Origin: Magnetococcales bacterium
GTDB lineage: Bacteria; Pseudomonadota; Magnetococcia; Magnetococcales; JADFZT01
Assembly: GCA_015232395.1 (NCBI GenBank)
Contig: JADFZT010000016.1
Coordinates: 1,866 to 65,865 of the forward strand
DNA: 64,000 nucleotides
Direction of reading: 5' to 3'
Shown here piece by piece: positions 3,211 to 44,629 of the stretch. Below the pieces are notes generated by a model. That model saw nothing but the letters and a program-made list of their open reading frames with translations. It was not told the origin of the DNA and made no database searches. How positions within the stretch are numbered: the stretch's first letter is position 1; each line of letters starts with the position of its first letter. A program made the translations under genes and the position numbers.

Positions 3211-3272
3211 GGGGCAGGGCCTTCTTGAGTGATTGTTGATTGAAGTCGATGGGGAGGCTTGGCGTGCTTGAT

Positions 3273-3986
3273 CTAGCTTTTCTTCCGGGCTTTGATTTTA
3301 ATCCCGGCGGTAAAGCGAAATCGCTCCTCTTCGAGAAACTCCCGGGCGCGGATGCGGCGGGGGCCTTCCGGCAGACGGTCGATCAGCAGACGAATGACCC
3401 GCTGTCTCAGCCACAAGGCCGGACGGGTCATGGCGGCGGCGATCCAGCGGGCCGGAGCCAGCTGAAAGAGGGCCTGAAAGGTCGCTTCCGGGCCGCTCCA
3501 CTCAAAGGGCTCCACCACCTCCACCTCAAGCCCCACCCCTTCGAACAATACCCGGGCGCCCAGATGGCTCATGTGAAAGTGGGAGCGGGCGTGGTAGGGC
3601 TCCAAAAACGACAGACTCGCCACCAGACAGCCTCCCGGTTTCAGAATGCGTGCCACCTCTCTGGCTGCCGCCCAGGGGTCGCTGAAATGTTCAAAACTGG
3701 AAGCCGCCACCACCAGATGGAAGCTGCCATCCGCCAGGGGGATCGCCTCGGCTTGCCCCAAGAGATCCGCTCCAGGCACCGCAAAGCGATCGATCCCCAC
3801 ATAGCGGAATCCCAGTTCAGTAAGATCCCGCCTGGCACCAGGTCCACACCCCAGATCGAGACAGCGCTCAGCCACACCCGGTGGATCGATCAGATGGGTC
3901 AAGGCAAAGGTGTCCCAGGAGCTGGGGTCAGCGCCGGTGATGCGGGCGGGCTTGGTAGGCTCGGTGGTTTGGTCCGGTGGGCTCAT
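3273..3986 (-). CDS. Class I SAM-dependent methyltransferase (type 11)
   Basis: CLDLGCGPG motif I, AEAIPLADGSFHLV, FEHFSDP, RILKPGG. Confidence 0.85.
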   Translation of the reverse strand: MSPPDQTTEPTKPARITGADPSSWDTFALTHLIDPPGVAERCLDLGCGPGARRDLTELGFRYVGIDRFAVPGADLLGQAEAIPLADGSFHLVVAASSFEHFSDPWAAAREVARILKPGGCLVASLSFLEPYHARSHFHMSHLGARVLFEGVGLEVEVVEPFEWSGPEATFQALFQLAPARWIAAAMTRPALWLRQRVIRLLIDRLPEGPRRIRAREFLEEERFRFTAGIKIKARKKS

Positions 3987-4076
3987 GGAGTTTTCCGTCG
4001 GTCGTGGTGCATCAGAGGCTGCCTGGATAGCACCCCAGGGGGCATGATATGGCTGACGCCATGGTAAAGCCCCCAC

Positions 4077-5930: not shown

Positions 5931-6017
5931 GTCAGCACAGCCCCGGAGGAGGGGGGAGGGGGTGGTTTCCAGGGTATGGGGGATGGTCTGGAGAGGCTGA
6001 AGAGAGGGGGTGGGGGC

Positions 6018-8083: not shown

Positions 8084-8328
8084 GAATCGGCTCCGGTATC
8101 GCTGTCGGAAGGCTTCCAGCAGCCGGGTTGACCACAGGATGGGCCATCCCCCTGCATGACGGCGCTGTTGCGGGGAACCCAGGTGCCGCACCCTTTGCAC
8201 TGCACCAGGGTGGGATCCTCTTCCGGGGCTTTGGGTGCTGGGGGAGGGGGGGGCATCATCAGGCGTTGCAGCAGACGATAGGCCATCACCCCCAGGGCGA
8301 TAAAAATCAGGATGCGAATAAGACCCAT
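8080..8328 (-). CDS. PP0621-like small membrane protein with Cys motif
   Basis: N-terminal TM segment then LVQCKGCGTWVP...CGQPGC; GGAGG SD. Confidence 0.75.
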   Translation of the reverse strand: MGLIRILIFIALGVMAYRLLQRLMMPPPPPAPKAPEEDPTLVQCKGCGTWVPRNSAVMQGDGPSCGQPGCWKPSDSDTGADS

Positions 8329-17914: not shown

Positions 17915-20494
17915 TCACCCCTCCAGTTGGGCGAGTTCTTTCATGTGGGCCTGGGCGGCTTTGTTGTGGGGATCTGCCTGGAGGATGGCTGAAAAAGTTT
18001 CCCGGGCTTGGTCCATGTGGCCCAACTCCATATGCAGCCGACCCAACTTTTGCCGGGTGACAAAATCCTCTTCGGCTATCTCTACATACCCCCTGTAAAT
18101 TTCAAGGGCCTGCTCCTTGTCACCGGTCAAGCGCAGGAGGTCTCCATAAAACGGGGTGAAGAGCTGAGACATGCGGGAGAGTTTTTCAGCCGCCTCCCGG
18201 GCGGTAACGAGATCCTTCTGCCTGAGGGAGAGGGAGAGAATGCTTCTCAGGCTATCCATCTGGATCAACTCATGATCCACCTCCTGAAAGTGACGGATGG
18301 CGTTTTTCCTCTCTCCATCCAGCTCTGCCAGATAGCCTCGGATTAACGCCAAAAACTGGTTTTTATCGTCTATTTCGCACGCCTGTACGCCCGCCAGGAA
18401 GGCGTTCAGGCGATCTCTCTCCTTGCGGCGAAAGAAGGTTTTGGCCTTGGCGGCGATGGAGCGGGGGCTGGCAATGTGGTCCCGGATATAGTCGGCATAG
18501 TTGGTGTTGGTGGCGGCCAGTTTATCCTGGAAGCGCTCTTCCAGCTGGGCCAACTTGGCAGCCAGGTGTTGTGGCTGGTCGGCGATGGTCTCTCCCCGCT
18601 GATCGAAAAAGCGCCGGAGCCGCCCTGGCTGATCATCCTTTTCCCATTGGCTTAGAAGGAGCTTCAGGTTGGGCTTGGGTTTTTCCTCCTCCATGCGGGC
18701 ACGGATGCGCTGTCGGGCGCTGTCGATGTGTTTCAACATGTCCAAGGTGCTTTTTTGATAGACCTGATAATAAAATGCTCCAGCCGCCTTGATCTCTTCG
18801 TCAGACCACTCCTTCTCCTTGTCCGGGCGGCTTAATTTTAAAAAAGCATTGAGATACCAATTTTTAACCTGGGTACTGATGGCGGCATGTTTTTGGTTCA
18901 GGGTCTCCTCGATTTTATCCATGCGCAGTTTAAACTTATAGTTGGGAGCGCGGCCCTTGGAGCCGAACATCTTGGCATTGCAGGAGAGGGCTTCATCGGT
19001 GAGCTTTTTGATGCTGGTCAGCTGTTTGCGGATATTGTTCAGCTCCTGCTCCACCGCCTGATAGTGGCCCAGGCGACTTTCAGAGCTATCCTCGGGGATG
19101 TGCTGTTGCAGGATGTGCCACACCGAGGGGGTGATCGGCTCCAGGGCGATTTCATCCAGGGGAATGTAGGCGACATGGTCCGCCTTGGCTGCGCCAGGAG
19201 CCGGGTTGATCACCTGACAGCCCACCTCCTCGCCTTTTTTGCCCAGCTTGGCCAGAGAGGGGAGGGCGTTGAGAAAGGCCGGGGTGGTCTCCGCCTTGCC
19301 GCCGTCATTGGTTTCCACCCAGATGTCGGTTTGCAGGGAGTAGGGCCCGAGGGCCATTTCGGCACTTCCCTTGGAGTGGGTAAATCCCTCCTTGCTGAAA
19401 CAGAGATCAAGACCTGCCACAATCAATTGGGAAAAGCCCATGTCCAAGGCCGTACCAATGGCTTGATGGGCCACGGTGATACCGGGAATATCCCGGTCTT
19501 CCGGGTTGAGGGGATTGGCCCAGGGAAAGATCAGACCCATAAAAAGATTGCGCCCCCGCCACTGTCCCAGCAGGGTGGGATTGAGATGATATTTATTGAC
19601 CAGCAGCGTGTGTTCATAAAAATCCAGCATCTGCTTGGATTGATGAAAAATCACATCGTGGGGATCGATGGCGAACATCATGTCCGGCACGATGCCTTTT
19701 TTCTGTAGCTGCGCCGCAATTCGGGAGACCGCCATCACTACCAGATTTTCCCGGTTGGCCAGGATCCAGGGATAAAAAAGATCCAGGGAGGGGCCTCCGG
19801 CCATGATGATGGCTGTTTTGCCTTTGAAAACATTATCCAGGCACTGCACCGAGGTGCGGTTTTCCCCCAGGTTTTCGATGGCTTTCAGCATGAAGATGCG
19901 ATTATTGGTCTCAAACCCCATGGCCATCTTCATCTGTCCCAGGAGCTGCTCAAAGCTTGCCAGGAGCGGGGCATAGCCCGGGTGGGTGCGGTCGAGAACC
20001 GCCAGGGATTTGATGGCCCGCACCCCCTCGGTATAGTAATAATCCTTGAAATTAAATTTTTGCGCCCTTTCCAGCCAACTGGTGGATGTCTCCAGGGCGA
20101 CGTTGTCCGGCAGGGGATCGGGCAGGAGGCGATCTTTTTTCAGGCGCTCAATGATCTCCGGCAGTTCGATAAATATATATTTGGAGCTTTCTGCCGTGCC
20201 TTTTTTCAGCAACCAGTGGATCAAAAGTCCTCCGTCGGTGCCCGGCACCAGATAGAGGCGGCTTTTTTCCTGCATCCGCTCCCCCATGTGGCGCTGATAA
20301 AAGCTGTCGGTTCCGGCCAGGGAAAAAATTTCACCGTTTACCCCGGGCAGATATCGCTCACCAAAGCGATTGGTCAGGGTGGGGCCGATATCAAACGCTT
20401 CCCCATTCCTGTTTTGCAGGCCCGCCTGATTGAGATGCTGTTGCTGATTGAGCTCTTGATAATAGTCGGCTTCTTCTGTGTTTGCTTGGATCAT
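17915..20494 (-). CDS. maf: Motility-associated factor (Maf/DUF115) flagellin glycosyltransferase with C-terminal TPR repeats
   Basis: KGKTAIIMAGGPSLD, PDMMFAIDPH, TVAHQAIGTA..GFSQLIVAGLDLCF...HSKG; TPR-like C-terminus. Confidence 0.8.
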   Translation of the reverse strand: MIQANTEEADYYQELNQQQHLNQAGLQNRNGEAFDIGPTLTNRFGERYLPGVNGEIFSLAGTDSFYQRHMGERMQEKSRLYLVPGTDGGLLIHWLLKKGTAESSKYIFIELPEIIERLKKDRLLPDPLPDNVALETSTSWLERAQKFNFKDYYYTEGVRAIKSLAVLDRTHPGYAPLLASFEQLLGQMKMAMGFETNNRIFMLKAIENLGENRTSVQCLDNVFKGKTAIIMAGGPSLDLFYPWILANRENLVVMAVSRIAAQLQKKGIVPDMMFAIDPHDVIFHQSKQMLDFYEHTLLVNKYHLNPTLLGQWRGRNLFMGLIFPWANPLNPEDRDIPGITVAHQAIGTALDMGFSQLIVAGLDLCFSKEGFTHSKGSAEMALGPYSLQTDIWVETNDGGKAETTPAFLNALPSLAKLGKKGEEVGCQVINPAPGAAKADHVAYIPLDEIALEPITPSVWHILQQHIPEDSSESRLGHYQAVEQELNNIRKQLTSIKKLTDEALSCNAKMFGSKGRAPNYKFKLRMDKIEETLNQKHAAISTQVKNWYLNAFLKLSRPDKEKEWSDEEIKAAGAFYYQVYQKSTLDMLKHIDSARQRIRARMEEEKPKPNLKLLLSQWEKDDQPGRLRRFFDQRGETIADQPQHLAAKLAQLEERFQDKLAATNTNYADYIRDHIASPRSIAAKAKTFFRRKERDRLNAFLAGVQACEIDDKNQFLALIRGYLAELDGERKNAIRHFQEVDHELIQMDSLRSILSLSLRQKDLVTAREAAEKLSRMSQLFTPFYGDLLRLTGDKEQALEIYRGYVEIAEEDFVTRQKLGRLHMELGHMDQARETFSAILQADPHNKAAQAHMKELAQLEG

Positions 20495-20793
20495 GGGGCG
20501 TGTTCCCGTTTGGCCCGGTCAGGCGTGCTCTTTGGGCGAAAATGGTGGATGAATCGATGGCAGGGGCGTGATCCTGAAAGTGGCCTCTCAAGCTTTCAGG
20601 GCCAGGGTGATGGAGCCTCCCCTTCTTGCAGGATCTACGCGTTAAGGGTATCAGCCATTTTTTTGCAATATTCTTTAGCATTTTTTTAGCAATTTTTGGG
20701 CCGTGCGTGGCAGCCAAGAGGGGGCGTTGGCTCCGGGTGTGCGACCCCGCTACAATACCCCCCATTTCAAGCTACCTGAAAAAGGAGTCATCC

Positions 20794-22209
20794 TTGGCCG
20801 TGTCAGGAAAAGGGACCATCCTCATTTTTTCTGCCAACCATGAGGAAAACCAGCAGACCGATTGGATCCTCTACGGGCCGCTGATCGTCTATACCCTGCT
20901 CAAGGAGGCGGGGTTCAAGGTGATCTATATTCAGGAGTTCATGACCCCCGACTATGAACCGATCATTCGGGAGCATGCCCGGGATCTGCTCTTTTTCGGG
21001 GTTTCCGCCACCACCGACCAGATTCCCCTGTCGCTCAAGGGCATCCAGGTGCTGAAAAAAATCGCCCCGGATGTGCCGGTGGTGTGGGGGGGGTGTCACG
21101 CGACCCTGCTGCCCCAAGAGACCCTCCAAAGCCCTTATGCCGACTATGTGATTCCCGGCAAGGTGAAAGACAATCTGGTCCGCTTTGCCAAAGCCCTGCA
21201 AGCCGGGGATAGGGCTGAAATCAATACCATTCCCAATGTGCTCACCTCATCCAGCCCGGCTGCCAATGATCCCGGGGCGGGGATCGTCGATTATCGCAGT
21301 GACGAGTTGGTCTATCCCCGGATTCCCTTTGAGGATTTCGATTTTTCAAGCCTGCTCACCCAAAACCGGGTGCTCAACTATATGCCTTCCCTGGGATGTC
21401 CCGGCTCCTGTGGATTTTGCCCCTGGGGAGAAAAACACGCCTGGAACCGGGTTTCTCTGGAACGCACCCTGGCGGATATCGACTATCTGATCCGCACCTA
21501 TGACCTCTCCCAGCTCTGGTTCAGCGATGCCACCCTGGCGCCGGAAAAAGAGTTTTTACTGGGGATTGCCGAGGGGATTTTGGCCCGCAAGCTCAATGTC
21601 ACCTGGCGCTGCTTTGCCCGCATTCCGGAGTTCGACAAGCTCACCGCCCAAGAGTATGCCGATCTGGATCGCTCCGGGCTCGATGCGGTCTTTTTCGGGG
21701 TGGAGTCCATGAACCGGACCTGCCAAAAAATTCTCCGGAAAAAAAACAGCCCCAAACGCATGGAAAAGGTGATTTCCATGATGGGGGCAACCCGGATCAA
21801 GCCCTATGTGAGCTTTCTTTTTGCCATTCCCGACGCCCCTTTGGCACATCTGGAAGAGGATCGACAACATCTCGACCTCTGGCAATCCTTAAATCCAGGC
21901 GTGATCTATCAGGTGGGGTTTTATGTCTACTATCCCGGCTCCCATCTGGCGGAGCTGGTGGCGGCCCGGGGATTTGATGTGCCCCGAAGCCTGGAGGCGT
22001 GGGGGGCACGCTACGGCAAAAACCGCTTCAAGCCCACCCGGGATCACCACATTCCCTGGTTTGAGGCAGATTACAATCGGGCCTATGTGGAGCGATTTTT
22101 CGAGATTTTTCCGGATGTCCACGAAGATCGCAAGGAGACCTCCTGGAACAAGAGCCTGAAGCGGTATGAGCAGAATCCCCCCCTGCCAGCAGGCGCGGAG
22201 GGGCTTTAG
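20794..22209 (+). CDS. B12-binding domain radical SAM enzyme
   Basis: VPVVWGGCHATL B12-binding domain, SLGCPGSCGFC, GVES; AAGGAG SD. Confidence 0.88.
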   Translation: MAVSGKGTILIFSANHEENQQTDWILYGPLIVYTLLKEAGFKVIYIQEFMTPDYEPIIREHARDLLFFGVSATTDQIPLSLKGIQVLKKIAPDVPVVWGGCHATLLPQETLQSPYADYVIPGKVKDNLVRFAKALQAGDRAEINTIPNVLTSSSPAANDPGAGIVDYRSDELVYPRIPFEDFDFSSLLTQNRVLNYMPSLGCPGSCGFCPWGEKHAWNRVSLERTLADIDYLIRTYDLSQLWFSDATLAPEKEFLLGIAEGILARKLNVTWRCFARIPEFDKLTAQEYADLDRSGLDAVFFGVESMNRTCQKILRKKNSPKRMEKVISMMGATRIKPYVSFLFAIPDAPLAHLEEDRQHLDLWQSLNPGVIYQVGFYVYYPGSHLAELVAARGFDVPRSLEAWGARYGKNRFKPTRDHHIPWFEADYNRAYVERFFEIFPDVHEDRKETSWNKSLKRYEQNPPLPAGAEGL

Positions 22210-26369: not shown

Positions 26370-27122
26370 ATGACCCTCAGTGTCACCGATCAGGAGCAGA
26401 TGGCGGCCCACATCCGGGCTTGTGGGGTAGAGGTGGGGGCAGACATCATCGTCCACTCCACCCTGCTGGGGTTTGGGGTGCTCCAGGGGGGGGTGGAGAT
26501 GGTCTACCGGGCGCTGCGTAGCGTCGTGGGGGAGGGGGGCACCATCGCCGTGCCGACCTATCTTTTGGGGGCCGACCCCAACCTGATCTACGATGCGGCG
26601 ACCACCCCTTCCCTGGCGGTGGGCAGCTTTTCGGAATATCTCCGGCAGCTGGATGGTGCGGTCCGCAGTCCATGTCCTCTCCACTCCCATGCGGCTGTTG
26701 GACCTAAAGCGGCACTTCTCAACGAGGTGGATGGGGGGATTTCCCTGGGGCGGGGGTCCGATTTTGACATTCTCCACGATGCCGGATTTGCCACCCTGAT
26801 GCTGGGATGTCCCTTCAAGGATGGGGCCACCTTCGTGATGCATCTGGAAGCGGTGGCTGGGGTTCATTTTCGGGAGTGGCTTGATTTGAGGCGGAAAATA
26901 CGGGATCCAGACGGCTCGGTGAGATCCATTCGCTGTCGCTATTATGCCCGCAAGCGGGGCTTTGATGAGGATTTGCAGCCCATATTGGATCTATTGCAGG
27001 CCAGCGGGACGATTCGAACGGTCCCTTTTCGTCGAACGACAAGTCTATATATCCCGGTTGTGGGCTATGGGGTGGCGCTGGAGGGGCTTTTGAAAAATCC
27101 GGAGATGACGTTGATTAAATAA
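26370..27122 (+). CDS. AAC(3)/YokD family acyltransferase
   Basis: IIVHSTL, GTIAVPTY, GSFSEYLR, RSPCPLHSHAAVG, TFVMHLEA. Confidence 0.85.
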   Translation: MTLSVTDQEQMAAHIRACGVEVGADIIVHSTLLGFGVLQGGVEMVYRALRSVVGEGGTIAVPTYLLGADPNLIYDAATTPSLAVGSFSEYLRQLDGAVRSPCPLHSHAAVGPKAALLNEVDGGISLGRGSDFDILHDAGFATLMLGCPFKDGATFVMHLEAVAGVHFREWLDLRRKIRDPDGSVRSIRCRYYARKRGFDEDLQPILDLLQASGTIRTVPFRRTTSLYIPVVGYGVALEGLLKNPEMTLIK

Positions 27123-27169
27123 AATAAAGAGGAGGATGCTTGGGAGAGAGAGAATCCAGCAGCTGACCG

Positions 27170-27432
27170 CTATGCATCCTGGGAAAGAGTGCCCTGGAGG
27201 AACTTCATGGAGGCCTCTGTACCCAGATAGCCTTGCTTTTCCGCTGCCAGAGCACCTTCTGCCCACAGTCGATCTTCCAGGCCAGGGCTTGCAGCTCCTG
27301 ATATCTTTCATGGGAGAGGAGCACGGCCGATTCCTGCCCACCTTGGGTGATGATAACCGGCGTGCGTGTGGCTTTGTTGAGGTAGAGGGCCAATCGCTGC
27401 TTCAGTTCAGTGGCCGTCACATGGCTGGTCAT
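27170..27432 (-). pseudogene. Frameshifted Phd/YefM antitoxin (orphan)
   Basis: VTATELKQRL...PVIITQGGQESAVLLSHERYQEL; removing a duplicated CCTGG (~27276-27286) restores LEDRLWAEGALAAEKQGYLGTEASMKFL. Confidence 0.75.
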
Positions 27433-27532
27433 GGCGTCGATTCCCTTTCTGAATGTTTCATCCTGAGCATCTGATTTGCCTGATTTGTTTCCTCCCCTTC
27501 TCTGCTGAAGGAGGGGAGGGAGCAGGAGGGTC

Positions 27533-28219
27533 TTATTCCTTCTTTTCCCCATACACCACCATGTGTTCGCTGTGCTTTCCTCCCAGGGTGACGCTGTATT
27601 GCCCCTGATCGATGATCTCCAGACCATCGCACCAGGAGATAAACTGTTCCAGGGATTCGGGGACGGTGACGATCATCCCTTTTTGGCCGGAGGTTTCTTG
27701 AATCACCCGGCGACCATGATTGTCTGCCAGGGGTTCGGTGATGGTCATGAGAATATCGTTGGGGGTGGGCATGGCGGCGATGAAGGCTCCCCCGGAGGGT
27801 AATCCCTGGATCAGCTCCTGGATATCTTGCTGGACCCGTTGTGGCGGGTTGTAGAGCAGGGAGCACCAGGCGACGACCTGATCATAAATCGGCAGCTGGC
27901 CCCGGAGTGCGCGCCGGGGGTCGATGGGGTTCATGGGGGGGATGGGGAGATCCCGATATTTCAGCCGCTGGCTGAGGGTGGTGAGGGCTTGCCGGGAAAC
28001 ATCGGTGCAGTGGATGCGATGACCCCGGCGCAGAAGAAATTCGCTGTTTACCCCCGAGCCGCAGCCGTGATCGAGAATGATCCCCACACCGCCTGAGGTC
28101 GCTGCCCGACGTTCGAAGCTTAAGGCCAGGCGAATGAAAGCCTCGGTGGGGTGGGCCATAAAGTTGCCGTTTTGGTAGATCTCATCCCAGATCCCCACAT
28201 TGTTGCTCGGTTGTGTCAC
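27533..28219 (-). CDS. Class I SAM-dependent methyltransferase
   Basis: WDEIY..HPTE.FIR N-terminus, ILDHGCGSG, CTDVS. Confidence 0.85.
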   Translation of the reverse strand: MTQPSNNVGIWDEIYQNGNFMAHPTEAFIRLALSFERRAATSGGVGIILDHGCGSGVNSEFLLRRGHRIHCTDVSRQALTTLSQRLKYRDLPIPPMNPIDPRRALRGQLPIYDQVVAWCSLLYNPPQRVQQDIQELIQGLPSGGAFIAAMPTPNDILMTITEPLADNHGRRVIQETSGQKGMIVTVPESLEQFISWCDGLEIIDQGQYSVTLGGKHSEHMVVYGEKKE

Positions 28220-28250
28220 GCTGGCTCCCCTCTGGCCGATTTATCCACGT

Positions 28251-28508
28251 TTAATTCCCCTGCCTGGCATCGATCAGAGAGGCCAGCCCGGCGATGGTGG
28301 TGATGGCGGGATTCATCATATCGTCATCTTCAAAAGCCACCCCGAAGGTTTCCCCCGCTTGCAGCAGCAGGGTGACCAGGGCCATGGAGTCGAGCACCCC
28401 TTTTTTCAGCAAATCGCTCTCAACCCCACAGCCGGTATCCTGGAAGGGCACGCCGCAGGCTTGCTCCACCAGGGTGATGAGGCGGGCCTCCAGTTCGGTG
28501 GGTTCCAT
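28251..28508 (-). CDS. Acyl/aminoacyl carrier protein (DltC-like)
   Basis: DLLKKGVLDSMALV phosphopantetheine site; acidic, 85 aa. Confidence 0.88.
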   Translation of the reverse strand: MEPTELEARLITLVEQACGVPFQDTGCGVESDLLKKGVLDSMALVTLLLQAGETFGVAFEDDDMMNPAITTIAGLASLIDARQGN

Positions 28509-28517
28509 GGCGCTCCC

Positions 28518-30023
28518 TTATCCTTGTTTTGTTCTGCCCGCTGGGGTTAACTCCCCCAACAGCTTTTCGCTGAAACGCTCCCGCACCGCTTTGCGATCCT
28601 TCTTGCCGTTGGCATTTTCCGGGAAGGTGTCGATGGGATAAATCCGATCCGGCAGCATGTGCAGGGGAAGTTGATCGCCCATGGTCTGTTTCAGCTGGAT
28701 GGGGTTGATGGTTTCACCAGGGGGCATCTGCACCACTGCCACCAGCAATGAGCGCCCATGGTGCTGGAACTGAAAGCAGATCACATCCCGGATTTGGCTG
28801 TGGCGCTTGAGGTTGACCTCCACATCCATCAACTCTATCCGATAGCCCCGGTGCTTGATTTGGCTGTCGATGCGCCCTTTGCAGAAGGTGAGCCCTTCGT
28901 GGTGGGCGATGAGATCCCCGGTGCGAAACCATCTTTTGCCATCCCGCTCAAAAAATCGATCCGCCCCCACCCCATCGAGATAGCCGGGGGTCAGCTGGCA
29001 GCCGGAGAGCAGCAACTCCCCTTCCTCGCTCACATCCACCTCATTGCCGGGAAGCGGGGTGCCGATGGGGACAAAACCGAACGCTTCGAACCGCTCCACA
29101 TCCCCCGGTTGGCACCGGTAATGGAAGTTTTCCACGCCACTCTCGGTGAGTCCATAAAAATTATAGATATGGGGCACCTTCATCCCCTCCTGGCAATAGT
29201 TCAATACCGGCAGGGCAAAGGGCTCGCCACAGAGAAAGTGAATGCGGATGGAGGTGTTGAGGGAAGGGTGCAGCTTGCGTACGCGATCGATCACCGAAGG
29301 CACCGAGGCCCAGACCGTGATGTCGTTTTGCTGCATGAACCCCGCTGGCATCACCCGCTCCCGGGGGGTCATGACCGGAGCAATGGCGCCTTGAACCAGG
29401 GGAAAGCAGAAGAGATAAAAAATTGAAATATCAAAAGCAAAATCGTGATAGTCAGCGAAAACATCGCCACTCTGGAAGGGGAGGATGTTTAAACAATTTT
29501 CAATAAAATGGATATAGTTCAGATGGCTCATGGGTACCCCTTTGGGGGTTCCGGTGGAGCCGGAGGTGAACATGATATAGGCGATCCCGTCGGGATCGAA
29601 TCGGGGTGGGGGGATCTCCCGGGGGGGGATGGGGGATTGTGCCAGTTGGCCGAGATTCCACACCGGGATGTTTTGCTCCTGGAGATGGTCGGCTATTTGG
29701 GAAGGGAGGTCACAATCCATCAGCACCAGCGCCGGTGGCACCATCTTGAGGATATCCAGATTGCGGTTGACCGCCAGATCCGGGCTTAAGGGCACCCAGA
29801 TATTGCCGGAGAGGATGGTGGCAAAAATGGCCCCGTAGGCTTCGAAGGATTTTTGGCTGTAGATCACCACCGGGCGTTGATTGAAATCTGCCAAAAGTCC
29901 TTTCACCTGACAGATCACCCGGTGCATCTCCCCATAATCCCGCTGATCCTCCCCATAGCGGTAGCAGATGCGTGGGGAGGGGGTGAGGGCTTGGTGGAGC
30001 TTCTGATAATAACGGTCGATCAC
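28518..30023 (-). CDS. Stand-alone amino-acid adenylation enzyme (DltA-like)
   Basis: YIMFTSGSTGTPKGV, FDISI, NFYGLTE, FRTGD, GRIDSQIKHRGYRIEL, NGKKDRK. Confidence 0.9.
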   Translation of the reverse strand: MIDRYYQKLHQALTPSPRICYRYGEDQRDYGEMHRVICQVKGLLADFNQRPVVIYSQKSFEAYGAIFATILSGNIWVPLSPDLAVNRNLDILKMVPPALVLMDCDLPSQIADHLQEQNIPVWNLGQLAQSPIPPREIPPPRFDPDGIAYIMFTSGSTGTPKGVPMSHLNYIHFIENCLNILPFQSGDVFADYHDFAFDISIFYLFCFPLVQGAIAPVMTPRERVMPAGFMQQNDITVWASVPSVIDRVRKLHPSLNTSIRIHFLCGEPFALPVLNYCQEGMKVPHIYNFYGLTESGVENFHYRCQPGDVERFEAFGFVPIGTPLPGNEVDVSEEGELLLSGCQLTPGYLDGVGADRFFERDGKRWFRTGDLIAHHEGLTFCKGRIDSQIKHRGYRIELMDVEVNLKRHSQIRDVICFQFQHHGRSLLVAVVQMPPGETINPIQLKQTMGDQLPLHMLPDRIYPIDTFPENANGKKDRKAVRERFSEKLLGELTPAGRTKQG

Positions 30024-30100
30024 GATAGAACCATGGCGTTGATGGCAGAGGGCAGAGGGGGCGCTTCCTTGGATCCGGATGGTTCCCCATGAATCGGGGA

Positions 30101-30841
30101 TTAGCCGGGCAAGGGGATTTTATCAAAGGGTTCTCCCGGCCCAAAGGTACGGTACAGGCAGAGGGCTTTGAGGTCCACCACTGTGCTGGAGATGGTCTGA
30201 AAAGTATCTTGACGCCAGATCCGCTCACGATCCTGGGGTGAGGCCGGGGCGATGGCCTGGAACAACCCTTCCTGGCTGGTGATTCCCTGGATTTTTTCCC
30301 CGGCATAGTCAAAGCGCTCCCAGCTGTTGGGATAGTCGGGCCGGTGTCGGGGCCCCCAGCTGAGATGGCGAAAATGGTTGGTGACGATGTAGCGCTCCCC
30401 CATGGGGGAGGGATGATGGTCAGCAGCATGCACCTCCACATGCACCCCCCGGTTGCGATCCACCAGAATGGCATTATAGCCCCGCCAGGGTGTTTTGGTT
30501 TTTTCGATGGCTGCCAACCAATCATCGATGGAGCGGACCTGGGGCAGGAGTCGGGAGAGGAGGTGTGAAATGCCGGATTTGCCCTGGATATCCCGGGCCA
30601 TCAGCTCCCGGGCTTTTGGCAACTCACCAGCCTCCACAGCGGCGGTCCAGGTGGGGGAGTTGACGGCGGTGGTGACAAAGGCACAGCCGTGGCGATTCAA
30701 CCCCAGGCTCAAATAGTCCGCGCCAACGGTTCGAACCCCCAACATTTCCGGGGTGGCCACAATCTCTTCGGTTTCCGGCTGCTCCTTGTCGCGGTTTTTG
30801 GAGAGCAGTCCCTGATTCTTTAAATAAAACACGGTGCACAT
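30101..30841 (-). CDS. N-terminal nucleophile (Cys) hydrolase/acyltransferase (NRDE/C45/choloylglycine hydrolase-like)
   Basis: MCT start, KNRD, LGLNRHG, VTNH, SWER, TISSTV. Confidence 0.75.
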   Translation of the reverse strand: MCTVFYLKNQGLLSKNRDKEQPETEEIVATPEMLGVRTVGADYLSLGLNRHGCAFVTTAVNSPTWTAAVEAGELPKARELMARDIQGKSGISHLLSRLLPQVRSIDDWLAAIEKTKTPWRGYNAILVDRNRGVHVEVHAADHHPSPMGERYIVTNHFRHLSWGPRHRPDYPNSWERFDYAGEKIQGITSQEGLFQAIAPASPQDRERIWRQDTFQTISSTVVDLKALCLYRTFGPGEPFDKIPLPG

Positions 30842-30958
30842 GAAAGATCGACCCGATGGTTGGTGAATGAGAGTGGCTTGGAGCTGGCTTGAAAAAACCA
30901 AACAGGCTGATGGTGCGCCATTGGTCCGGGGGATTCAATCCTTAAGGTGGTGTCTGTT

Positions 30959-32158
30959 TTATCTCAAGCGGTCGGTGAGTTCCCGGTGGAGGTTCAGGGG
31001 AACGGTCTCTGTGAGCTGCTTGTGGAGTTTGGGTAGCAGGTAACAAAATTCCAGCCAAGGGGAGATATCCCCCCGGTAGCGCAGCAGGCTTAAACGATCC
31101 AGATCCAGCAAAATTTCCGCATCCCGCTCCACCAGCACCCCGAAAAAGACAAAGGGCATGAAACGCCGCTCCACCTCGGAATAGAGGGAGCCTTTGACGA
31201 TTTTTTGGGAGATCAGGCCACAGCGATAGATATAGAGCCAGCGGAAGGCGTCGCAGCTGCCGCTGGAGCCAAGCAGGGTCAAGCCTGGCAGCACCGGGGC
31301 CTGGGGATGGCCAAAATAGCCCGCCACCTGATGATAGCTGTAGGGGGTGTCGGTGTCGTAGATCATCACCAGGAGGGAGCGGGGGTGGATGCGGCCTTGG
31401 GTTTTTTCCCGAATACGCGTGACCAGGCGGCGGGAGATCAGAGTGGCGATTTCGTTGCAGCGCACCGGCCCCAGCATCAGCCGCCCCCGGTAGCGGTCGA
31501 TCCGGGGCTTGGAGATATCCCCCAGCACCAGGCTTTTTTCCAGATCAGTACGGGTCAGCTCCAGCTCCCCGAACGCCTCGACCCGCTCCCGACACGCTTC
31601 GAAATAGGCCTGCCGAATCTCCATGGGCTGGGCGGTGATCTGGTGGGGATCCACCTCCACCCCGTTTACGTCAAAGAGCACCGCCTCGGCAGGCACCGTG
31701 AGATCAAACGCCTGGGTGATCATTTTGGCGCCCAACGCCACCCCAAAAAAGATTCCCTCACCGATCCACTTGTCCACCGGTTCCAGATTGGCCCGGATCA
31801 CCGCCTCCTGGTGGCGATCGTGATGCTGGATGTAGCTTTCCGCCAGGGACTCCTCCAGGGCTTCGATGCCGCCATCAAGATCCAGAGGGCGCTCCATCTC
31901 GTGGGGGATGGTCAGGGAGGAGACCGACGTCCCCTGGAAAAGCGCCCCCCGCTCCGGCTCCCCATACCACGCCTTCAGCTCCTCGGTGCGCACCCATTGG
32001 TTGAAGAGGGTGTGATAGAGGGCCTGCTGTTGGGGCGAGCTGCTTTCAAAGAGCCCACGCCCCTGGGTCACCTTGGCTTCCAGCTGAGCATACCAGGCTT
32101 GTTGTTGGGGATCTGCCGGTTGGTCGTCCAGTTGGGCCAGATAATCTTTCAGATTCAC
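30959..32158 (-). CDS. Hypothetical protein (399 aa), possible remote CofE-like amide ligase
   Basis: Long ORF co-oriented in the cluster; GAKMITQA and LLVMIYDTDT resemble CofE motifs (SKxxSKA, VIIxDT). The function is speculative. Confidence 0.7.
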   Translation of the reverse strand: MNLKDYLAQLDDQPADPQQQAWYAQLEAKVTQGRGLFESSSPQQQALYHTLFNQWVRTEELKAWYGEPERGALFQGTSVSSLTIPHEMERPLDLDGGIEALEESLAESYIQHHDRHQEAVIRANLEPVDKWIGEGIFFGVALGAKMITQAFDLTVPAEAVLFDVNGVEVDPHQITAQPMEIRQAYFEACRERVEAFGELELTRTDLEKSLVLGDISKPRIDRYRGRLMLGPVRCNEIATLISRRLVTRIREKTQGRIHPRSLLVMIYDTDTPYSYHQVAGYFGHPQAPVLPGLTLLGSSGSCDAFRWLYIYRCGLISQKIVKGSLYSEVERRFMPFVFFGVLVERDAEILLDLDRLSLLRYRGDISPWLEFCYLLPKLHKQLTETVPLNLHRELTDRLR

Positions 32159-32230
32159 GATGGCGCTCTTTTGTCGCTGAAAAACATGGTTAACCCACTC
32201 CTGGGTCCAAGGTTTATGATCCCTGAAGGT

Positions 32231-32469
32231 TATATGGCCTGCCTAAGAATTGGACACTCTTTTCTGACTCGTCATCCCCGCGAAGGCGGGGGTCCAGGGA
32301 TATTATGGTGTCCTCAAGGAAAAACCAAATCTTCAGCAAGGCTGGTGTTATGCTGGAAGTGAAGCAAGATTTGGAAAGGTTCGTGCTAGACACTCTGGAT
32401 TCCCGCCTTCGCGGGAATGACGACAAAAATACAAAGGCCTATGTCCAATTCTTGATTCGAATGGCTATA
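32231..32469 (+). mobile_element. ~240 bp TA-flanked MITE, copy 1
   Basis: Ends ...AGAATTGGACA / TGTCCAATTCTTGATTCGAATGGCTATA; internal GTCATCCCCGCGAAGGCGGGG and ATTCCCGCCTTCGCGGGAATGAC palindromes; similar along its length to copies 2 and 3. Confidence 0.85.
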
Positions 32470-34405
32470 CCTGCTCCAGCCGGACCCGCTCATATTTTTT
32501 GCGCTGTAAAACCGCCCGGGTGAGCAGCTCCAGATCTTCCCGGGTGCGGAAATGTTCTCTTCTAAGGGGCTCCGGCAGGGCGGCGGGGTCGATCTCCTGG
32601 CCTTCCCGATAGGCTTTGGCATAGCGTTCGGTGTTTTGGAACATTTCCTGGACATTTTCGGTGCCGTAGCGCTGGACGAAGGTAGAGCCCCAGTCGTTGC
32701 CAAACCAGTCACACAGCATCCCCCGCACCTGATCCGGGAAGAGGGTGACGAGGCCAATGTCGGGGCGGGCCTTGACGATATCAGCCATCATGGTGTGCCC
32801 GGCTGAAACCACCTCCCGCTTCCAGTTTTGGCCATCCACCAGATAGGGCAGACGCACCTGGAACTCTTCAGCAGGCATCCGGGAGAGGCCCAAGGCGTTC
32901 TCCTCATCAAAATCCCGCTCCATGGGGGAGCCCCGGGTGAGGTCGAAGGTGGCCAGGGTCAGGGTGTGGATGTGGCGATTTTGGATAATGTAGTCGGTGA
33001 GGGCTTTTCTCTGGGCTGCTGTTTCTCCGGGAAAGCCGATCAAAACAAAGCAAAAATTCATAATGCCCGCCTCCCCCGAGAGCCGTAGGACATCGTCGGT
33101 GTGGGAGGGACGGGTTTTTTTGTTCATCTCCTTCAAAATCCCCGGATCGTTGGTCTCCAATCCCCAGTGAATCTTGCGGCAGCCCCCGGCATAAAGGCGC
33201 TTGAGAACCCCCTCCCGGGTGAAGGATTTTTCCAGCCGGGCAAAGGTTTCCCAACGAACATGGAGGTTCTTTTCAGCGATCTCATCGGCGATTTCCAGAA
33301 GCAGGCTGGGCGAAGAGGTGTCTTCCATCAATTTGAAATAGACCGCTTGCCGACCGTGCTTTTCCTGAATTTCCCCCTGGATGCGTTGGAGTTCCGCCAC
33401 CACCCGTGGGGCTTCCCGCAGCCGATATTTGTTGGAGCCGAAGGGGATGGCGCAAAAAGCACACTCCCCATAGCACCCCCGGGTGGTCTGCACCGGGATG
33501 AGATATTCGGGGAGGAGATAGCGCTCAAAATCAAAACCGCTGAAATCCACCTCGGGAATCGCCTCACCGCTCAGGGCCGCCCCGGTGCGCTGGATGAGGG
33601 GGGGGGTTGGGGAGGGGGAGGCGTCCGGGGCCTGATCTGGTGCATGATTTGGCGTGTGGCAGGGGATCAGGTTGGTCATCTCGACCTCTTCCCCCCGAAT
33701 CAGCTGGCGGTGGAGATTGACCAGGGGAATCTCCCCATCCCAGAGAATCAGATAATCCGCCAGCCCCCGAATGCCCGGATGGTTCAGCATTGACTCCTGG
33801 CAGCGGGTGATCATCTGGCCACCGAAAACGATGCGGCACGTTGGCATCTCCCGGCGAATCACCCGGGCTAACGTGTGGGCCGGAATCAGCTGATCCTGAA
33901 AGGTGATGGCGATACCGATGATTTTGGGTTTGAGGGGGATAAAATCAGCGCGCACCCGTTTTTCATAATAGGCGATAAAGGGGTTGCTCTCTCGATCCCG
34001 GGTGGCGGCCAGCACCGAATCAAACTGGAGTCGGTCGTGGGCCATGGCCAGAGAGCGCATGCCCACATGGAGCTTGGGCCATCCCTTGGAACGCTCCCAG
34101 AGACGGGCCTCCAGATCGTTATAATACGAAAGGATCGAGAGGGGGTTTTGGCGAAATTCGGTCTGGCTGGGGGGTGGGGGGAGGGGGCTTAAAAAATCAT
34201 GAAAAAAATCGATATTGTCATCGACAATCCGACAGTTGAAACCGGCCGTGGTCAAGGCCCCCTGCAACAGGGGCAGATTCAGTTGGGCATGGAGCGGACT
34301 GGAAATGGGGGTGTTGATCAGGATGGAATCCACCTCTGCCACAGGGAGGGGTGGGGAGGGGGGTTGGCCGGGATGGCTGGGGGAAGGGGAGTGGGTGGCT
34401 GCCAT
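32465..34405 (-). CDS. Large B12-binding radical SAM enzyme (putative class B methyltransferase)
   Basis: IGIAITFQDQL..IVFGG B12 domain, QTTRGCYGECAFC, WGLET, IGFPGET; start uncertain (could extend to 34501). Confidence 0.88.
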   Translation of the reverse strand: MAATHSPSPSHPGQPPSPPLPVAEVDSILINTPISSPLHAQLNLPLLQGALTTAGFNCRIVDDNIDFFHDFLSPLPPPPSQTEFRQNPLSILSYYNDLEARLWERSKGWPKLHVGMRSLAMAHDRLQFDSVLAATRDRESNPFIAYYEKRVRADFIPLKPKIIGIAITFQDQLIPAHTLARVIRREMPTCRIVFGGQMITRCQESMLNHPGIRGLADYLILWDGEIPLVNLHRQLIRGEEVEMTNLIPCHTPNHAPDQAPDASPSPTPPLIQRTGAALSGEAIPEVDFSGFDFERYLLPEYLIPVQTTRGCYGECAFCAIPFGSNKYRLREAPRVVAELQRIQGEIQEKHGRQAVYFKLMEDTSSPSLLLEIADEIAEKNLHVRWETFARLEKSFTREGVLKRLYAGGCRKIHWGLETNDPGILKEMNKKTRPSHTDDVLRLSGEAGIMNFCFVLIGFPGETAAQRKALTDYIIQNRHIHTLTLATFDLTRGSPMERDFDEENALGLSRMPAEEFQVRLPYLVDGQNWKREVVSAGHTMMADIVKARPDIGLVTLFPDQVRGMLCDWFGNDWGSTFVQRYGTENVQEMFQNTERYAKAYREGQEIDPAALPEPLRREHFRTREDLELLTRAVLQRKKYERVRLEQV

Positions 34406-34415
34406 GGAGCTGTTG

Positions 34416-35168
34416 TCAGAGCGCCCGATAGGCATAGACGAAGACCCCGCCGACATCTCCGGGTTGATTGGGACCGATCTTGATTTTTTCCACCAGCTCA
34501 AAGGGGGCTGCCTGCATTTCCGCTTCGAACATCTCCTCGTGGCGCTTAAAATCGCCGATCATCTGCAAGCCTGATTTTAAGGCGTTGATTTCGATCTGGG
34601 CCAGCTCAAAGGACTCTTCCCTCAGGGCCTGGTTGATGATGAAGGTGTGATAGCGATAGAGGGCCTCCCGCCGTTCTTCCGGTGTTTCATAGGGGGGGAG
34701 CAGCTCGCCACCCATGAGATAGAGCCCGCCGGGTTTTAAATTTTGGTGGATGTTGTGGATGAACGCCTCGGCTTCATCGTGATGGATGTGGTCGTGGGCA
34801 AAGACCGAGAGGGTGAGATCAAAAGCGCCTGGTTCACACCAGCCCACCGCATCCCCCTGACTGGTGATGACCCGGGGGTGTAGACGCTCTTCCAAAATCC
34901 GGCAGCACTCTTCATCGATGTCGATGGCGGTGATTTCCAGATGATCAAAGCCGAGAAAAGCTTCGGTCGCCAAACCCGTCCCTGCTCCCAACTCCAGCAG
35001 TCGGCTCTCCCCCCGATCCTGTAGAAAATCCCCACAGCGGGCCACCAGGGCTTCGATCATCTCCCCATAGAAGGGGTGGGAGCGCTCCACCGCATGGTAG
35101 ATCTCCAGATCGATATAGCGGGACATCTCCAGGGTTTTGGAGCCCGGGGCTTTGGCGGTCATGAGCAT
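34416..35168 (-). CDS. Class I SAM-dependent methyltransferase
   Basis: LLELGAGTG, AIDID, FAHDHI, NLKPGG. Confidence 0.88.
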   Translation of the reverse strand: MLMTAKAPGSKTLEMSRYIDLEIYHAVERSHPFYGEMIEALVARCGDFLQDRGESRLLELGAGTGLATEAFLGFDHLEITAIDIDEECCRILEERLHPRVITSQGDAVGWCEPGAFDLTLSVFAHDHIHHDEAEAFIHNIHQNLKPGGLYLMGGELLPPYETPEERREALYRYHTFIINQALREESFELAQIEINALKSGLQMIGDFKRHEEMFEAEMQAAPFELVEKIKIGPNQPGDVGGVFVYAYRAL

Positions 35169-35304
35169 TTTGGATTCCGATTCATTTTTTGGCTCTATCG
35201 GCTCTTATCGGTCAATCACCTGGTTGGACCTTACCGAAATTTCTTTTTTTTTGGGATTTTAATCAATTGAGACCCATGCAGGGGGCCTCCCTCAGGTTTT
35301 GCTC

Positions 35305-35514
35305 TCACGGCTTTAAAATCCGCCCACGCAAAATTTGCAGCAAAAACCGCAGGGAAGCCACGATCCCGGCAAAAATTTGCAATGAATTGAAGATTCGAAA
35401 GAAAAATCGCTCAAACCGCACCAGCCTGGGCAGCGCCCTCCAGGGCCTCAAGAGCAGGAGTATGGGCCACCAGCGACGCAAAAAGAGGCTCAACCTTCCC
35501 CAAAAACGATTCAT
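35305..35514 (-). CDS. Small Arg/Leu/Phe/Trp-rich cationic hydrophobic protein (69 aa)
   Basis: AAGGAG SD 6 nt before the ATG; ATGA overlap with the deacetylase stop codon. Confidence 0.65.
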   Translation of the reverse strand: MNRFWGRLSLFLRRWWPILLLLRPWRALPRLVRFERFFFRIFNSLQIFAGIVASLRFLLQILRGRILKP

Positions 35515-36485
35515 GATCCGCTCCTTGTGTTCGACTTGTTCTGGTCATTTGGCCTGGATTTTGGCTTTTTCATCTGTCGAATGACCTCAATATGGTCCAT
35601 CCGGGGCAGCTCCAGGAGGCTTTTGGGGGTGTCGAACAGATCGGTACGAAAACCGACCCGCACTCCGATGGAGGATAAAAACCGCAACGTTTCGGCATCA
35701 TAGGCGTTGCAGGGGTAGGAGACCGTGATGGGATCCTCTCCGGTGATCGCCTTCAGATGACGGGCGTTGGTGGTATATTCGGCTTCCTGGCGGGCCTGGG
35801 GGAGATCGATGATGCGGTTGTGGTGGCTGTGGCTGTGGAGGCCGATCACGAAGCCGGCATCATGAAGCTCTTTGAGTTGTTCGGGCTTCATCCAGAGCTG
35901 ATCGCTGATTTTATCGGCATCAAAACCGTTGCCGCTGATCATGGTGTCCATGACGGTCTCATAGCGTTCCGCCCCCAAAATCGTATTGCGCACATAGCGA
36001 AAGGTGCGGTCGTTGTTGGAATAAAAACGGTGGGGGGCGAGATAGCCCGCCGGGTCGAACCCCTCAAGCCCCTGGGTGATCTGATCCCAGAGGTCGAGCT
36101 TGCGGCAGGTTTGATAAAAAGCCCCGTAAAAGGCATCCACATGGTCAAACTGCACCGTGCGAAAATAGCGATAGATCTCCAATGTATCCTTTTCACCGCT
36201 CATGGGGCCGGTATAGGCGAACCAAAAGGCGGTCAATCCCAGCTCCCGCATCACCGGCACCGCGATATCATACTGGCAGCGGAGGCCGTCGTCGAAGGAG
36301 AGGCAGAGGTCGTTCTCACCCAGGGTGCCCGCCTGCACCCGATCCAGCCACTCATGAGCCGGAAGCAGGCGATCCATGCCGACATGCTCCAGCAGCTCCC
36401 GAAACTCCCCACCACTGATCGCCCCCTGCCCACGGGGGTGCTGCTGGTTATGGAAATGATGAAACATGATGGCGTAGGGGCTCAT
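35511..36485 (-). CDS. Polysaccharide deacetylase (CE4/NodB-like)
   Basis: IMFHHF, LSFDDGL, IGLHSHSH, SYPCN, LPRMD. Confidence 0.88.
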   Translation of the reverse strand: MSPYAIMFHHFHNQQHPRGQGAISGGEFRELLEHVGMDRLLPAHEWLDRVQAGTLGENDLCLSFDDGLRCQYDIAVPVMRELGLTAFWFAYTGPMSGEKDTLEIYRYFRTVQFDHVDAFYGAFYQTCRKLDLWDQITQGLEGFDPAGYLAPHRFYSNNDRTFRYVRNTILGAERYETVMDTMISGNGFDADKISDQLWMKPEQLKELHDAGFVIGLHSHSHHNRIIDLPQARQEAEYTTNARHLKAITGEDPITVSYPCNAYDAETLRFLSSIGVRVGFRTDLFDTPKSLLELPRMDHIEVIRQMKKPKSRPNDQNKSNTRSGS

Positions 36486-43588: not shown

Positions 43589-44629
43589 ATGACAGCGGTC
43601 CCTGTCCCTGCCAACGCCACACCCCCCTCTGATTCCCCCGGGTCGATTCCCTTATATCGACTGGAGTTGACCCGGGGGGACGAAGCCCGAGTTTTGCAGC
43701 AGTTGGCCCGGGAGCCCTTTGTGGATCGGGCTTTGGTGGAAGCGTGGGAAGGGGCGTGGTCCGATCTTTGGTGGCGTCCGGCGTGCGCCTTTGCCGACAG
43801 CGTTGATCTCATCGCCACCCTGAAAAAAATTTACGGCTGGCGCTCCGGGGATGTGGTGGTGGCTGATCCCCTGGTGAATCCCATCTGGCGGGAGGGCTTG
43901 GCTGCGGCCTGGCTCCACACCGCCCCGGTGGATATCGATCCCCTCACCGGCTTGGCCACCGAACAATCTCCCCTCTATCCCCCTGAAGGGGGTACCCCCC
44001 AAGCCCGAATCGTGCAACATACATTGGGTCATCCCCACCGCATATTTCGCTGGGAAACCACTGTTCTGGAAGATGTTTCCGCCATCCTGAAGCCCCTTCC
44101 GGGGTGTGGTGGAGGGGATCTTCAGATGTTGAGCCTGGATCCCAACCGCATGGTGCGTGCAGGTGAGGGCGTGGTGGCGCTCTCTGAGGATAAAAACCTC
44201 ATCCAAACCCTGAAAAAACATCGTCCCCGCCTCCCCGCAGCGGGTGCTGTGGCCCTGGGGCTCTCCCAGCTTTCCCGGATCGACCGGATTCTTGAAGGGC
44301 GTGAACACCTGGCAAAAAATTATTTGGCCCTGCGGGATCGGGGCCTGTTCCATAAACCATCCAACCCCCAAAGGGGCCGGGCCTGGGACGGTTTTTTTTT
44401 GGTGATGAGATCCCCCGAAGCCCGGGAATCCCTGAAAGCATTTTTAAATAAATCCAATATTTTGGCCGATTCTCCCCTCTGGTTTAAGTCTCAAGTTCTG
44501 GATCAACTGCCTGGTTTGGAGGGGTTTTTGGCAACCTCCCTGGCTCTCCCCCTCTATCTTCCCCTCACCCCCCGGGAGCAGAAGCGGGTCATTAATCGAG
44601 TGCATCGCTGGGTGGAAAAGCGCTTTTAA
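43589..44629 (+). CDS. Degenerate DegT/DnrJ/EryC1/StrS aminotransferase-like protein
   Basis: VDIDP, VLED, SLDPNRMVRAGEG (Arg in place of the PLP lysine), LGLSQLSRID, SLALPLY. Confidence 0.7.
   Translation: MTAVPVPANATPPSDSPGSIPLYRLELTRGDEARVLQQLAREPFVDRALVEAWEGAWSDLWWRPACAFADSVDLIATLKKIYGWRSGDVVVADPLVNPIWREGLAAAWLHTAPVDIDPLTGLATEQSPLYPPEGGTPQARIVQHTLGHPHRIFRWETTVLEDVSAILKPLPGCGGGDLQMLSLDPNRMVRAGEGVVALSEDKNLIQTLKKHRPRLPAAGAVALGLSQLSRIDRILEGREHLAKNYLALRDRGLFHKPSNPQRGRAWDGFFLVMRSPEARESLKAFLNKSNILADSPLWFKSQVLDQLPGLEGFLATSLALPLYLPLTPREQKRVINRVHRWVEKRF

Follow-up and report, generated by a model that had tools for sequence, protein, structure and literature searches.

What is made by a gene cluster that combines a B12-binding radical SAM enzyme (B12-rSAM), a stand-alone amino-acid adenylation enzyme and a protein of 399 amino acids (aa) with no profile match, and where does the product go? 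Such a cluster occupies positions 26370 to 36485 of a 64,000-nucleotide stretch (the window) of contig JADFZT010000016.1, from a Magnetococcales genome (GCA_015232395.1). Its core, which consists of the B12-rSAM, the 399-aa orphan, an N-terminal nucleophile (Ntn) hydrolase, a methyltransferase (MT1) and the stand-alone adenylation (A) domain, is a cassette conserved in unrelated microbes. The gene set and the predicted fold of the orphan incline us, slightly beyond an even chance, to a reading in which an unusual methylated amino acid is made by ligation, modification and release, and would then be loaded on a carrier and used to N-acylate a sugar. The features that carry the argument are as follows.

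32465 to ~34333, minus strand: B12-rSAM, core (Pfam B12-binding and Radical_SAM)
~32468 to 32575, minus strand: C-terminal helix of the B12-rSAM, which ends at an invariant position
30959 to 32158, minus strand: orphan of 399 aa, putative amide ligase with a predicted CofE fold, core (structure model; no Pfam match)
30101 to 30841, minus strand: Cys-nucleophile Ntn hydrolase/acyltransferase, C45/AAT-like, core (PF03417)
34416 to 35168, minus strand: MT1, class I SAM methyltransferase, core (Pfam Methyltransf_25)
28518 to 30023, minus strand: stand-alone amino-acid A enzyme, core (TIGR01733/DltA-like, below cut-off)
28251 to 28508, minus strand: carrier protein (acyl or peptidyl carrier protein), locus-variable (PF00550; LDS motif)
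26370 to 27122, plus strand: N-acyltransferase of the AAC(3)/FrbF family, the exchangeable enzyme proposed for transfer in this locus (PF02522)

Homologues fix the start of the Ntn gene at 30841, where the protein begins MCT, and place that of the B12-rSAM at ~34333, since they begin at residue 57 of the long open reading frame (ORF).

A conserved core in unrelated microbes

We found 170 homologues of the orphan, with 50 to 67% identity among the 120 listed; the named sources are Magnetovibrio, Magnetospirillum, Omnitrophota, Nitrospirae, Deltaproteobacteria and Scalindua. The 60 foreign loci collected fall into 38 groups at 90% nucleotide identity, including 14 independent groups with at least 5 kb on both sides (hereafter, long loci). 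Most loci are metagenomic, because the scan of genome contigs, made with a single protein, yielded 1 locus; searches of viral contigs and plasmids yielded none. All 14 long loci carry the B12-rSAM, the A domain and a carrier with a DS motif, while MT1 is present in 13 and the Ntn hydrolase in 12. A B12-rSAM gene is visible in 32 groups, and in 28 of these it lies within 450 nucleotides (nt) of the orphan gene; the remaining six groups have at most 1.3 kb upstream. An earlier note on this DNA had staked its reading on the genes being found side by side in other genomes, and the core is indeed together in 14 independent long loci.

The clustering of these genes is far beyond chance. Across 401 genomes of another order, the orphan and the B12-rSAM subfamily occur in the same 4, and within the class the orphan is present in 1 of 56 genomes, this one only, as is the A-domain subfamily. 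The codon usage of the cassette is host-like and so gives no sign of recent arrival, despite the absence of the cassette from all 55 other genomes of the class.

The predicted ligase and the B12-radical SAM enzyme

The orphan was called a ligase in the earlier note, and this label now rests on fold, because a confident structure model (predicted local distance difference test score, pLDDT, 93; predicted template modelling score, pTM, 0.93) matches CofE. Among 48,161 chains, CofE was the sole one above Z 5, at Z 11.2 with a root-mean-square deviation of 3.7 over 186 residues, and the next chain reached Z 4.4. Realignment to three CofE entries gave Z 11.3 to 11.8 over up to 189 residues, and the top five Foldseek rows are all CofE (E 0.014 to 0.11). 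By its predicted model, the orphan thus belongs to the CofE fold; by sequence, it does not. There was no match to a family in Pfam, NCBIfam, the PDB (phmmer and hmmsearch) or the ESM Atlas, where the Atlas model is of low confidence, and the CofE family model PF01996 matched neither the orphan nor 10 of its relatives, with 0 matches in this genome. The invariant orphan residues K145, D214, S216, P231 and D268/D270 fall on the likewise invariant CofE residues K36, D105, S107, P119 and D147, in profile alignments that are non-significant (hhalign E 0.25 and 0.065), draw on 12 CofE sequences and leave the C-terminal Glu motif of CofE unaligned. We take the counterparts of K145, D214, S216 and D268/D270 to be metal ligands in CofE, and the whole set is mostly retained even in relatives at 21 to 27% identity. 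The orphan is predicted to act like CofE while standing outside the CofE family by sequence.

Some further observations concern the orphan family. A UniRef label, "NurA domain," on one homologue (P0032, attributed by one source to Magnetospirillum moscoviense) found no support in the fold searches. Longer, fused ligases were not found among 8000 candidates, which is weak evidence. Distant relatives (P0128 to P0152 and P0177 to P0185) have 288 to 403 aa, share 21 to 27% identity and retain the catalytic-type motifs, and one tight group of them is from Nanoarchaeota/Pacearchaeota.

The B12-rSAM has a B12-binding domain and a radical SAM domain whose CxxxCxxC motif is invariant among homologues, as in class B radical SAM enzymes; its B12-binding Pfam score of 24 is under the cut-off of 32, and the domain is supported by the fold match to TsrM. 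The model (pLDDT 85) has TsrM, OxsB, CysS and TokK as its nearest solved folds, at 10 to 18% identity. A hidden Markov model (HMM) search of the PDB ranks the glutamine methylase MgmA first, and among named families TIGR03975 scores highest, with 104 bits where the cut-off is 282. OxsB, one of the fold neighbours, is not known to be a methylase. In the scheme proposed here, the enzyme would transfer methyl groups. Phosphonate or arsenic chemistry, raised by matches to PhpK and ArsL, was rejected, as the scores are far under the cut-offs and the partner genes are not recurrent among the annotated neighbour clusters.

The end of this enzyme is unusually constant. All 49 homologues that run to a stop codon, and all 32 that remain after dereplication (at 42 to 64% identity), end at the identical residue, mostly with Gln-Val. 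The modal C-terminal end is shared by 26 to 48% of ligase, A-domain, MT1 and Ntn sequences, and by 25 to 38% of NeuB and DegT sequences. A single helix (588 to 621) is predicted for the last 35 residues, at pLDDT 58 to 72 against 85 overall. A separate scaffold peptide was not found among 884 small intergenic ORFs in 21 loci: apart from carrier proteins, none is shared by more than two of these loci.

CofE uses GTP to convert a carboxylate into an acyl phosphate, which then forms an amide with the amine of glutamate (PMC10861534). On our preferred reading, the predicted ligase would use GTP and a divalent metal to activate a carboxylate in the same way and link it, through an amide, to the amine of an amino acid. 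We favour the invariant C-terminus of the B12-rSAM as this carboxylate, and the alternative would be a small acid. Held as an amide, the residue would be methylated by the B12-rSAM and MT1, and the Ntn hydrolase would then release the amino acid. The most specific form of this scheme, in which the B12-rSAM serves as its own carrier peptide, with an amino acid added at the invariant C-terminus, methylated there and clipped off by the Ntn enzyme, is a tentative proposal that we think rather doubtful taken by itself. Within the ligate-modify-release scheme it accounts for a little under half of our confidence; the rest goes to a small acid as the carboxylate, the tail then being no more than a docking helix.

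The proposed release enzyme matches PF03417 in all 31 members, with an invariant nucleophile (C2 in 31 of 31), and so belongs to the C45/AAT family; its invariant residues are M1-C2-T3, R17, D18 and N155-H156. It is fused with MT1 as one protein in 10 of 23 groups. MT1 itself is 44 to 66% identical across 30 members and finds only generic methyltransferase clusters in the ESM Atlas, the nearest of which is also rich in Nanobdellota.

Loading, transfer and the glycan acceptor

An amino acid released in this way would be loaded on the carrier by the A domain. The FDIS aspartate of the A domain, singled out in the earlier note, is Asp198 and is kept in 22 of 22 homologues, and the catalytic Lys is kept in 20 of 20 full-length members. 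The pocket reads D-I-F-A/S-F-C-F-V-E-K at positions counted on A4 from motif offsets, which we take to correspond to GrsA numbering, and F289, V297 and E298 are invariant. Such conservation implies what would be one conserved, non-standard substrate. The best matches to named families are the DltA models of NCBIfam, at 196 to 199 bits, well below the cut-offs of 476 and 560. As the earlier note had it, no condensation, ketosynthase, thioesterase, DltB or DltD family is present among the 31 window ORFs scanned, and DltB and DltD were also not found among recurrent neighbours.

The pocket bears on whether anything is released at all. The ligase might instead build a dipeptide-like or cyclic acyl group, such as methylated glutamyl or 5-oxoprolyl, that is retained, with the Ntn enzyme as an acyltransferase or cyclase. 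This would fit its place in the AAT acyltransferase family, its absence from 2 of the 14 long loci and the addition of glutamate by CofE (PMC10861534). It would also fit the methylated 5-oxoprolyl and pyroglutamoyl groups known as N-acyl substituents of O-antigen amino sugars (PMC10609480); amino acids in N-linkage are known on such sugars too. However, an Asp kept in 22 of 22 A domains, together with an aromatic pocket and its invariant Glu, is suited to a free amino acid of a basic or bulky kind, and a separate transferase is always present, so we consider retention improbable.

Where modification takes place is addressed by the carriers. In butirosin 4-amino-2-hydroxybutyrate (AHBA) and vicenistatin synthesis, protection and deprotection are carrier-bound, and the butirosin enzymes BtrJ and BtrG are an ATP-grasp enzyme and a cyclotransferase, respectively. 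By the same route, a plain amino acid would be loaded here, the ligase would cap its amine, the B12-rSAM and MT1 would modify it, and the Ntn enzyme would uncap it before transfer to a glycan. The A domain and carrier in all 14 long loci are consistent with this course, as are CysS and TokK, whose structures contain pantetheinylated substrates, among the B12-rSAM fold neighbours, and the tracking of the carrier by Ntn distances (rho 0.61). However, carrier mean identity is 23%, against 41 to 58% for the core enzymes, and the carriers are of unrelated types that follow the transferase rather than the ligase or B12-rSAM, which are themselves 56 to 58% alike. In distances, the B12-rSAM and ligase show the highest correlation (rho 0.78), and the carrier tracks these two least (0.21 and 0.23). 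The invariant end of the B12-rSAM would also be left unexplained. On-carrier protection, after the butirosin analogy drawn in the earlier note, is thereby weakened, and we view it as unlikely.

In the last step of the preferred scheme, AAC(3) here, and a PglD/NeuD-like or GNAT enzyme elsewhere, would transfer the acyl group to a nucleotide-linked amino sugar on a nonulosonate or 4-amino-6-deoxyhexose route. An acyltransferase adjoins the A domain or carrier in all 14 long loci: AAC(3) in 5, a PglD/NeuD-like (LbH) enzyme in 7 and a GNAT in 2 (a count by family gives 9 LbH, as the two GNAT loci also hold a NeuD among their sugar genes). The AAC(3) of the window belongs to the PF02522 fold family, has FrbF as its best PDB match (E 1.4e-15) and scores 72 bits against the resistance family NF033082, far under the cut-off of 270. 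In L011/L012, the carrier and AAC(3) are fused, and L004 has the same convergent layout of AAC(3) (54%) and a second methyltransferase, MT2 (58%). Within the class, the nearest three relatives of AAC(3) are not accompanied by the core: one (L106) has a carrier in its vicinity, and two (L107 and L108) have an unrelated A domain; AAC(3) is therefore part of a general loading module. The view of AAC(3) as a carrier-linked acyltransferase is thereby strengthened; as a defining part of the cluster, it gives way to the other transferase types in 9 of the 14 long loci. Elsewhere in this genome, a second AAC(3)-family gene lies beside an AMP-binding enzyme (contig C163, 117 to 2609), another acyl-transfer module, with neighbours that are presumably in part glycosyltransferase-like and asparagine-synthase-like ORFs.

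Might the product be a free small molecule, an antimetabolite or cofactor, with AAC(3) as an acetyl-CoA-dependent self-protection or resistance enzyme? The AAC(3) fold, with FrbF as top solved match, and the B12-rSAM relatives in antibiotic pathways would allow it. However, the swapping of AAC(3) for other transferases, its fusion to a carrier in one case and its scores far under the resistance-family cut-offs make this a remote prospect, as do the position of the loci among glycan genes and the lack of a recurrent exporter or thioesterase among neighbour clusters.

The remaining features of the region and its surroundings are listed here.

27533 to 28219, minus strand: methyltransferase MT2, accessory (orthologue in L004)
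35511 to 36485, minus strand: polysaccharide deacetylase, a neighbour outside the core
35305 to 35514, minus strand: 69-aa Arg/Leu/Phe-rich ORF, doubtful
27205 to 27432, minus strand: Phd/YefM antitoxin gene, passenger (PF02604, E 1e-9)
32271 to 32421, no strand: inverted repeat of a genome-wide family, between the B12-rSAM and orphan genes
17915 to 20494, minus strand: Maf-like flagellin glycosyltransferase gene, context only (PF01973, weak NF050051)

The minus-strand order is deacetylase, 69-aa ORF, MT1, B12-rSAM, orphan, Ntn, A domain, carrier and MT2, and AAC(3) faces this run. The earlier note had these genes in place but missed the antitoxin and the inverted repeat, and its Arg-rich ORF is doubtful. 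That ORF, which overlaps the stop of the deacetylase gene, does have a ribosome-binding site, but its codon adaptation is the lowest of the run (0.50 against 0.67 to 0.78), and homologues were found neither in the 5 relatives tried nor in 58 loci. The inverted repeat has 167 genome-wide blastn matches of at least 22 nt, several of them inside the window. No toxin gene was seen alongside the antitoxin gene, which lies between MT2 and AAC(3), and the corresponding junction in L004 has no antitoxin. Predicted promoters and terminators are at shuffle level (5 against 4.6 and 12 against 13.0).

The co-orientation of these genes in the window once suggested that the deacetylase strips the N-acetyl group from a finished sugar, that AAC(3) re-acylates it, and that MT2 and the Arg-rich ORF are pathway members. 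A comparable swap was hypothesised for Cj1295 of Campylobacter jejuni (PMC3068675), and 4 of the 14 long loci carry DUF4910 (Cj1295-like) genes, all 4 of them together with AAC(3) and none of the LbH or GNAT type. The comparison of loci nevertheless does not support these members: the deacetylase is in 0 of 38 groups, MT2 is in 1 of 38 (L004 only), and the Arg-rich ORF has no match. Of the other 55 genomes in the class, 8 have deacetylase homologues, and none of these 8 has the ligase; one of the homologues, in L111, lies beside Maf, DegT and NeuD. Because the deacetylase is outside the core, "de-N-acetylate, then re-acylate" is without comparative support, and we consider such a swap highly improbable. 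More broadly, DUF4910/DUF2172 genes accompany the AAC(3)-type transferase in L001, L025, L026, L037, L106 and L108.

The earlier note had proposed a surface glycan as the likely acceptor, and the gene context agrees: NeuB, cytidylyltransferase, NeuC or DegT genes are found in 11 of the 14 long loci, with NeuB in 6, and Maf genes flank L001. This genome has 3 NeuB, a NeuC, a CMP-synthetase, 2 Maf (the second on contig C99) and 11 flagellin-domain matches. Because of the sugar-gene context and these NeuB, Maf and flagellin-domain genes, flagellin is a fair guess as the acceptor in this genome, and another envelope glycan would serve elsewhere. Other observations touch on the glycan setting. An array of nine flagellin-domain genes lies on contig C82 (156238 to 171673). 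Many cassette loci (L006, L008, L020, L025, L029, L033, L039, L044 and L054) hold several further B12-radical SAM and SPASM-radical SAM genes among their glycan genes. The window has a second, unrelated B12-radical SAM gene at 20626 to 22209 (plus strand), divergent from the Maf gene, and a 40% relative of it lies between the A domain and carrier in L025. A fragment match to a DegT/PseC-like aminotransferase lies beside thiC at 43589 to 44629 (plus strand), 7 kb off the cluster. At the left end of the window (2128 to 8200), glycosyltransferase-like, asparagine-synthase-like and radical SAM ORFs, as read by eye, may form a second glycan-tailoring group.

Several observations weigh against the ligate-modify-release scheme and its glycan acceptor. 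The link of the ligase to CofE is structural only, with profile E values of 0.25 and 0.065, a best Foldseek E of 0.014 and 14 to 17% identity, and distant ligase relatives occur in, for example, Nanoarchaeota. The conserved residues of the B12-rSAM tail sit on one helix face, and an invariant C-terminus can also be a docking helix or an active-site plug. The Ntn gene is absent within 10 kb in L008, on a long contig, and L001 lacks both Ntn and MT1, as does its draft genome; release may therefore not be obligatory. The distance correlations are weak evidence, since carriers vary more than enzymes generally and kin share distances. Three of the 14 long loci have none of the four sugar markers. 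Of these, L001 is flanked by Maf genes, L008 contains a WbqC gene and L006 contains one for a sulfotransferase. Lastly, the window Maf gene that the earlier note had placed ~6 kb away is present, at 5.9 kb, but is separated from the cluster by unrelated genes (cytochrome c, DUF411, oxidoreductase and HMA genes).

Comparison with known systems

The earlier note did not recognise this gene combination as a characterised pathway, and we likewise found no description of the set in the literature searched, which covered few subscription papers and neither supplements nor MIBiG. If the proposed synthesis is right, the CofE fold, characterised in F420 synthesis, would gain a role in building-block synthesis. 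A substrate context would also be provided for a single subfamily among the numerous B12-radical SAM genes of glycan loci that lack an assignment, and a new N-acyl group would be predicted on sugars of flagellin or the envelope in microbes from marine, sediment and groundwater settings.

How does each part compare with its known counterparts? The predicted fold of the orphan, at residues 77 to 372, is that of CofE and the FbiB N-terminal domain (PF01996; PDB 2phn and 7uld), and the invariant Lys, Asp-x-Ser and Asp-Thr/Ser motifs come in the same order. In contrast to CofE, the orphan is ~150 residues longer, including an N-terminal helical extension, has 14 to 17% identity and no Pfam or HMM match, and lies in a glycan-tailoring cassette rather than with F420 synthesis; canonical CofE is missing from the genome. 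The B12-rSAM shares its B12-binding domain, CxxxCxxC motif and overall fold with class B methylases (TsrM, CysS, TokK, MgmA and TIGR03975) but, at 10 to 18% identity, is a distinct subfamily of 607 to 622 aa with an invariant C-terminal helix. A stand-alone A domain and carrier are also the basis of D-alanylation by DltA/DltC, although the pocket of the cassette differs and DltB and DltD were not found.

Among whole pathways, the butirosin AHBA and vicenistatin routes resemble the cassette in combining a ligase and a hydrolase with a free-standing carrier and a transferase for acylation of an amino sugar. The butirosin genes include ATP-grasp ligase, decarboxylase, monooxygenase, BtrH and BtrG families that the cassette lacks, whereas the B12-rSAM and MT1 are present in the cassette.

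The work on pearlins (PMC9303977) offers another parallel. There, a ligase phosphorylates the C-terminus of a carrier peptide; modification by a methyltransferase and a B12-rSAM is followed by release of the product by a protease. In the tmo cluster, which makes 3-thiahomoleucine, the ligase appends an amino acid to the C-terminal carboxylate, a methyltransferase and a releasing hydrolase are present, and the B12-rSAM TmoD binds the carrier peptide tightly; the cassette likewise has a B12-rSAM. However, the cassette has no Pfam or NCBIfam match to a PEARL (LanB-like) enzyme, no DUF692 and no separate scaffold peptide, its ligase has the predicted CofE fold and its hydrolase is of the Ntn type, and an A domain, a carrier and an acyltransferase are added. 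If the B12-rSAM is its own carrier, this would be pearlin-like logic arrived at with unrelated folds, needing neither tRNA nor a separate scaffold and feeding glycan decoration across several phyla.

Closest in destination are flagellin tailoring systems. In Campylobacter, Cj1295 and the N-acetyltransferase Cj1296/7 are linked to 5-N-dimethylglyceroyl pseudaminic acid (PMC3068675), and Aeromonas islands hold an ACP and an AMP-dependent synthetase (PMC7874193). In both, as proposed for the cassette, a flagellin nonulosonate receives an unusual acyl group from acyltransferase or carrier modules, although the accessible portions of these accounts make no mention of a radical SAM enzyme, a CofE-fold ligase or an Ntn hydrolase, and the known acyl group is glycerate-derived. 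Altogether, the front end of the cassette appears undescribed: four tightly conserved enzymes, among them a ligase whose family the profile libraries used do not recognise. Its back end for loading and transfer, with an A domain, a carrier and an amino-sugar acyltransferase, is known glycan-decoration logic.

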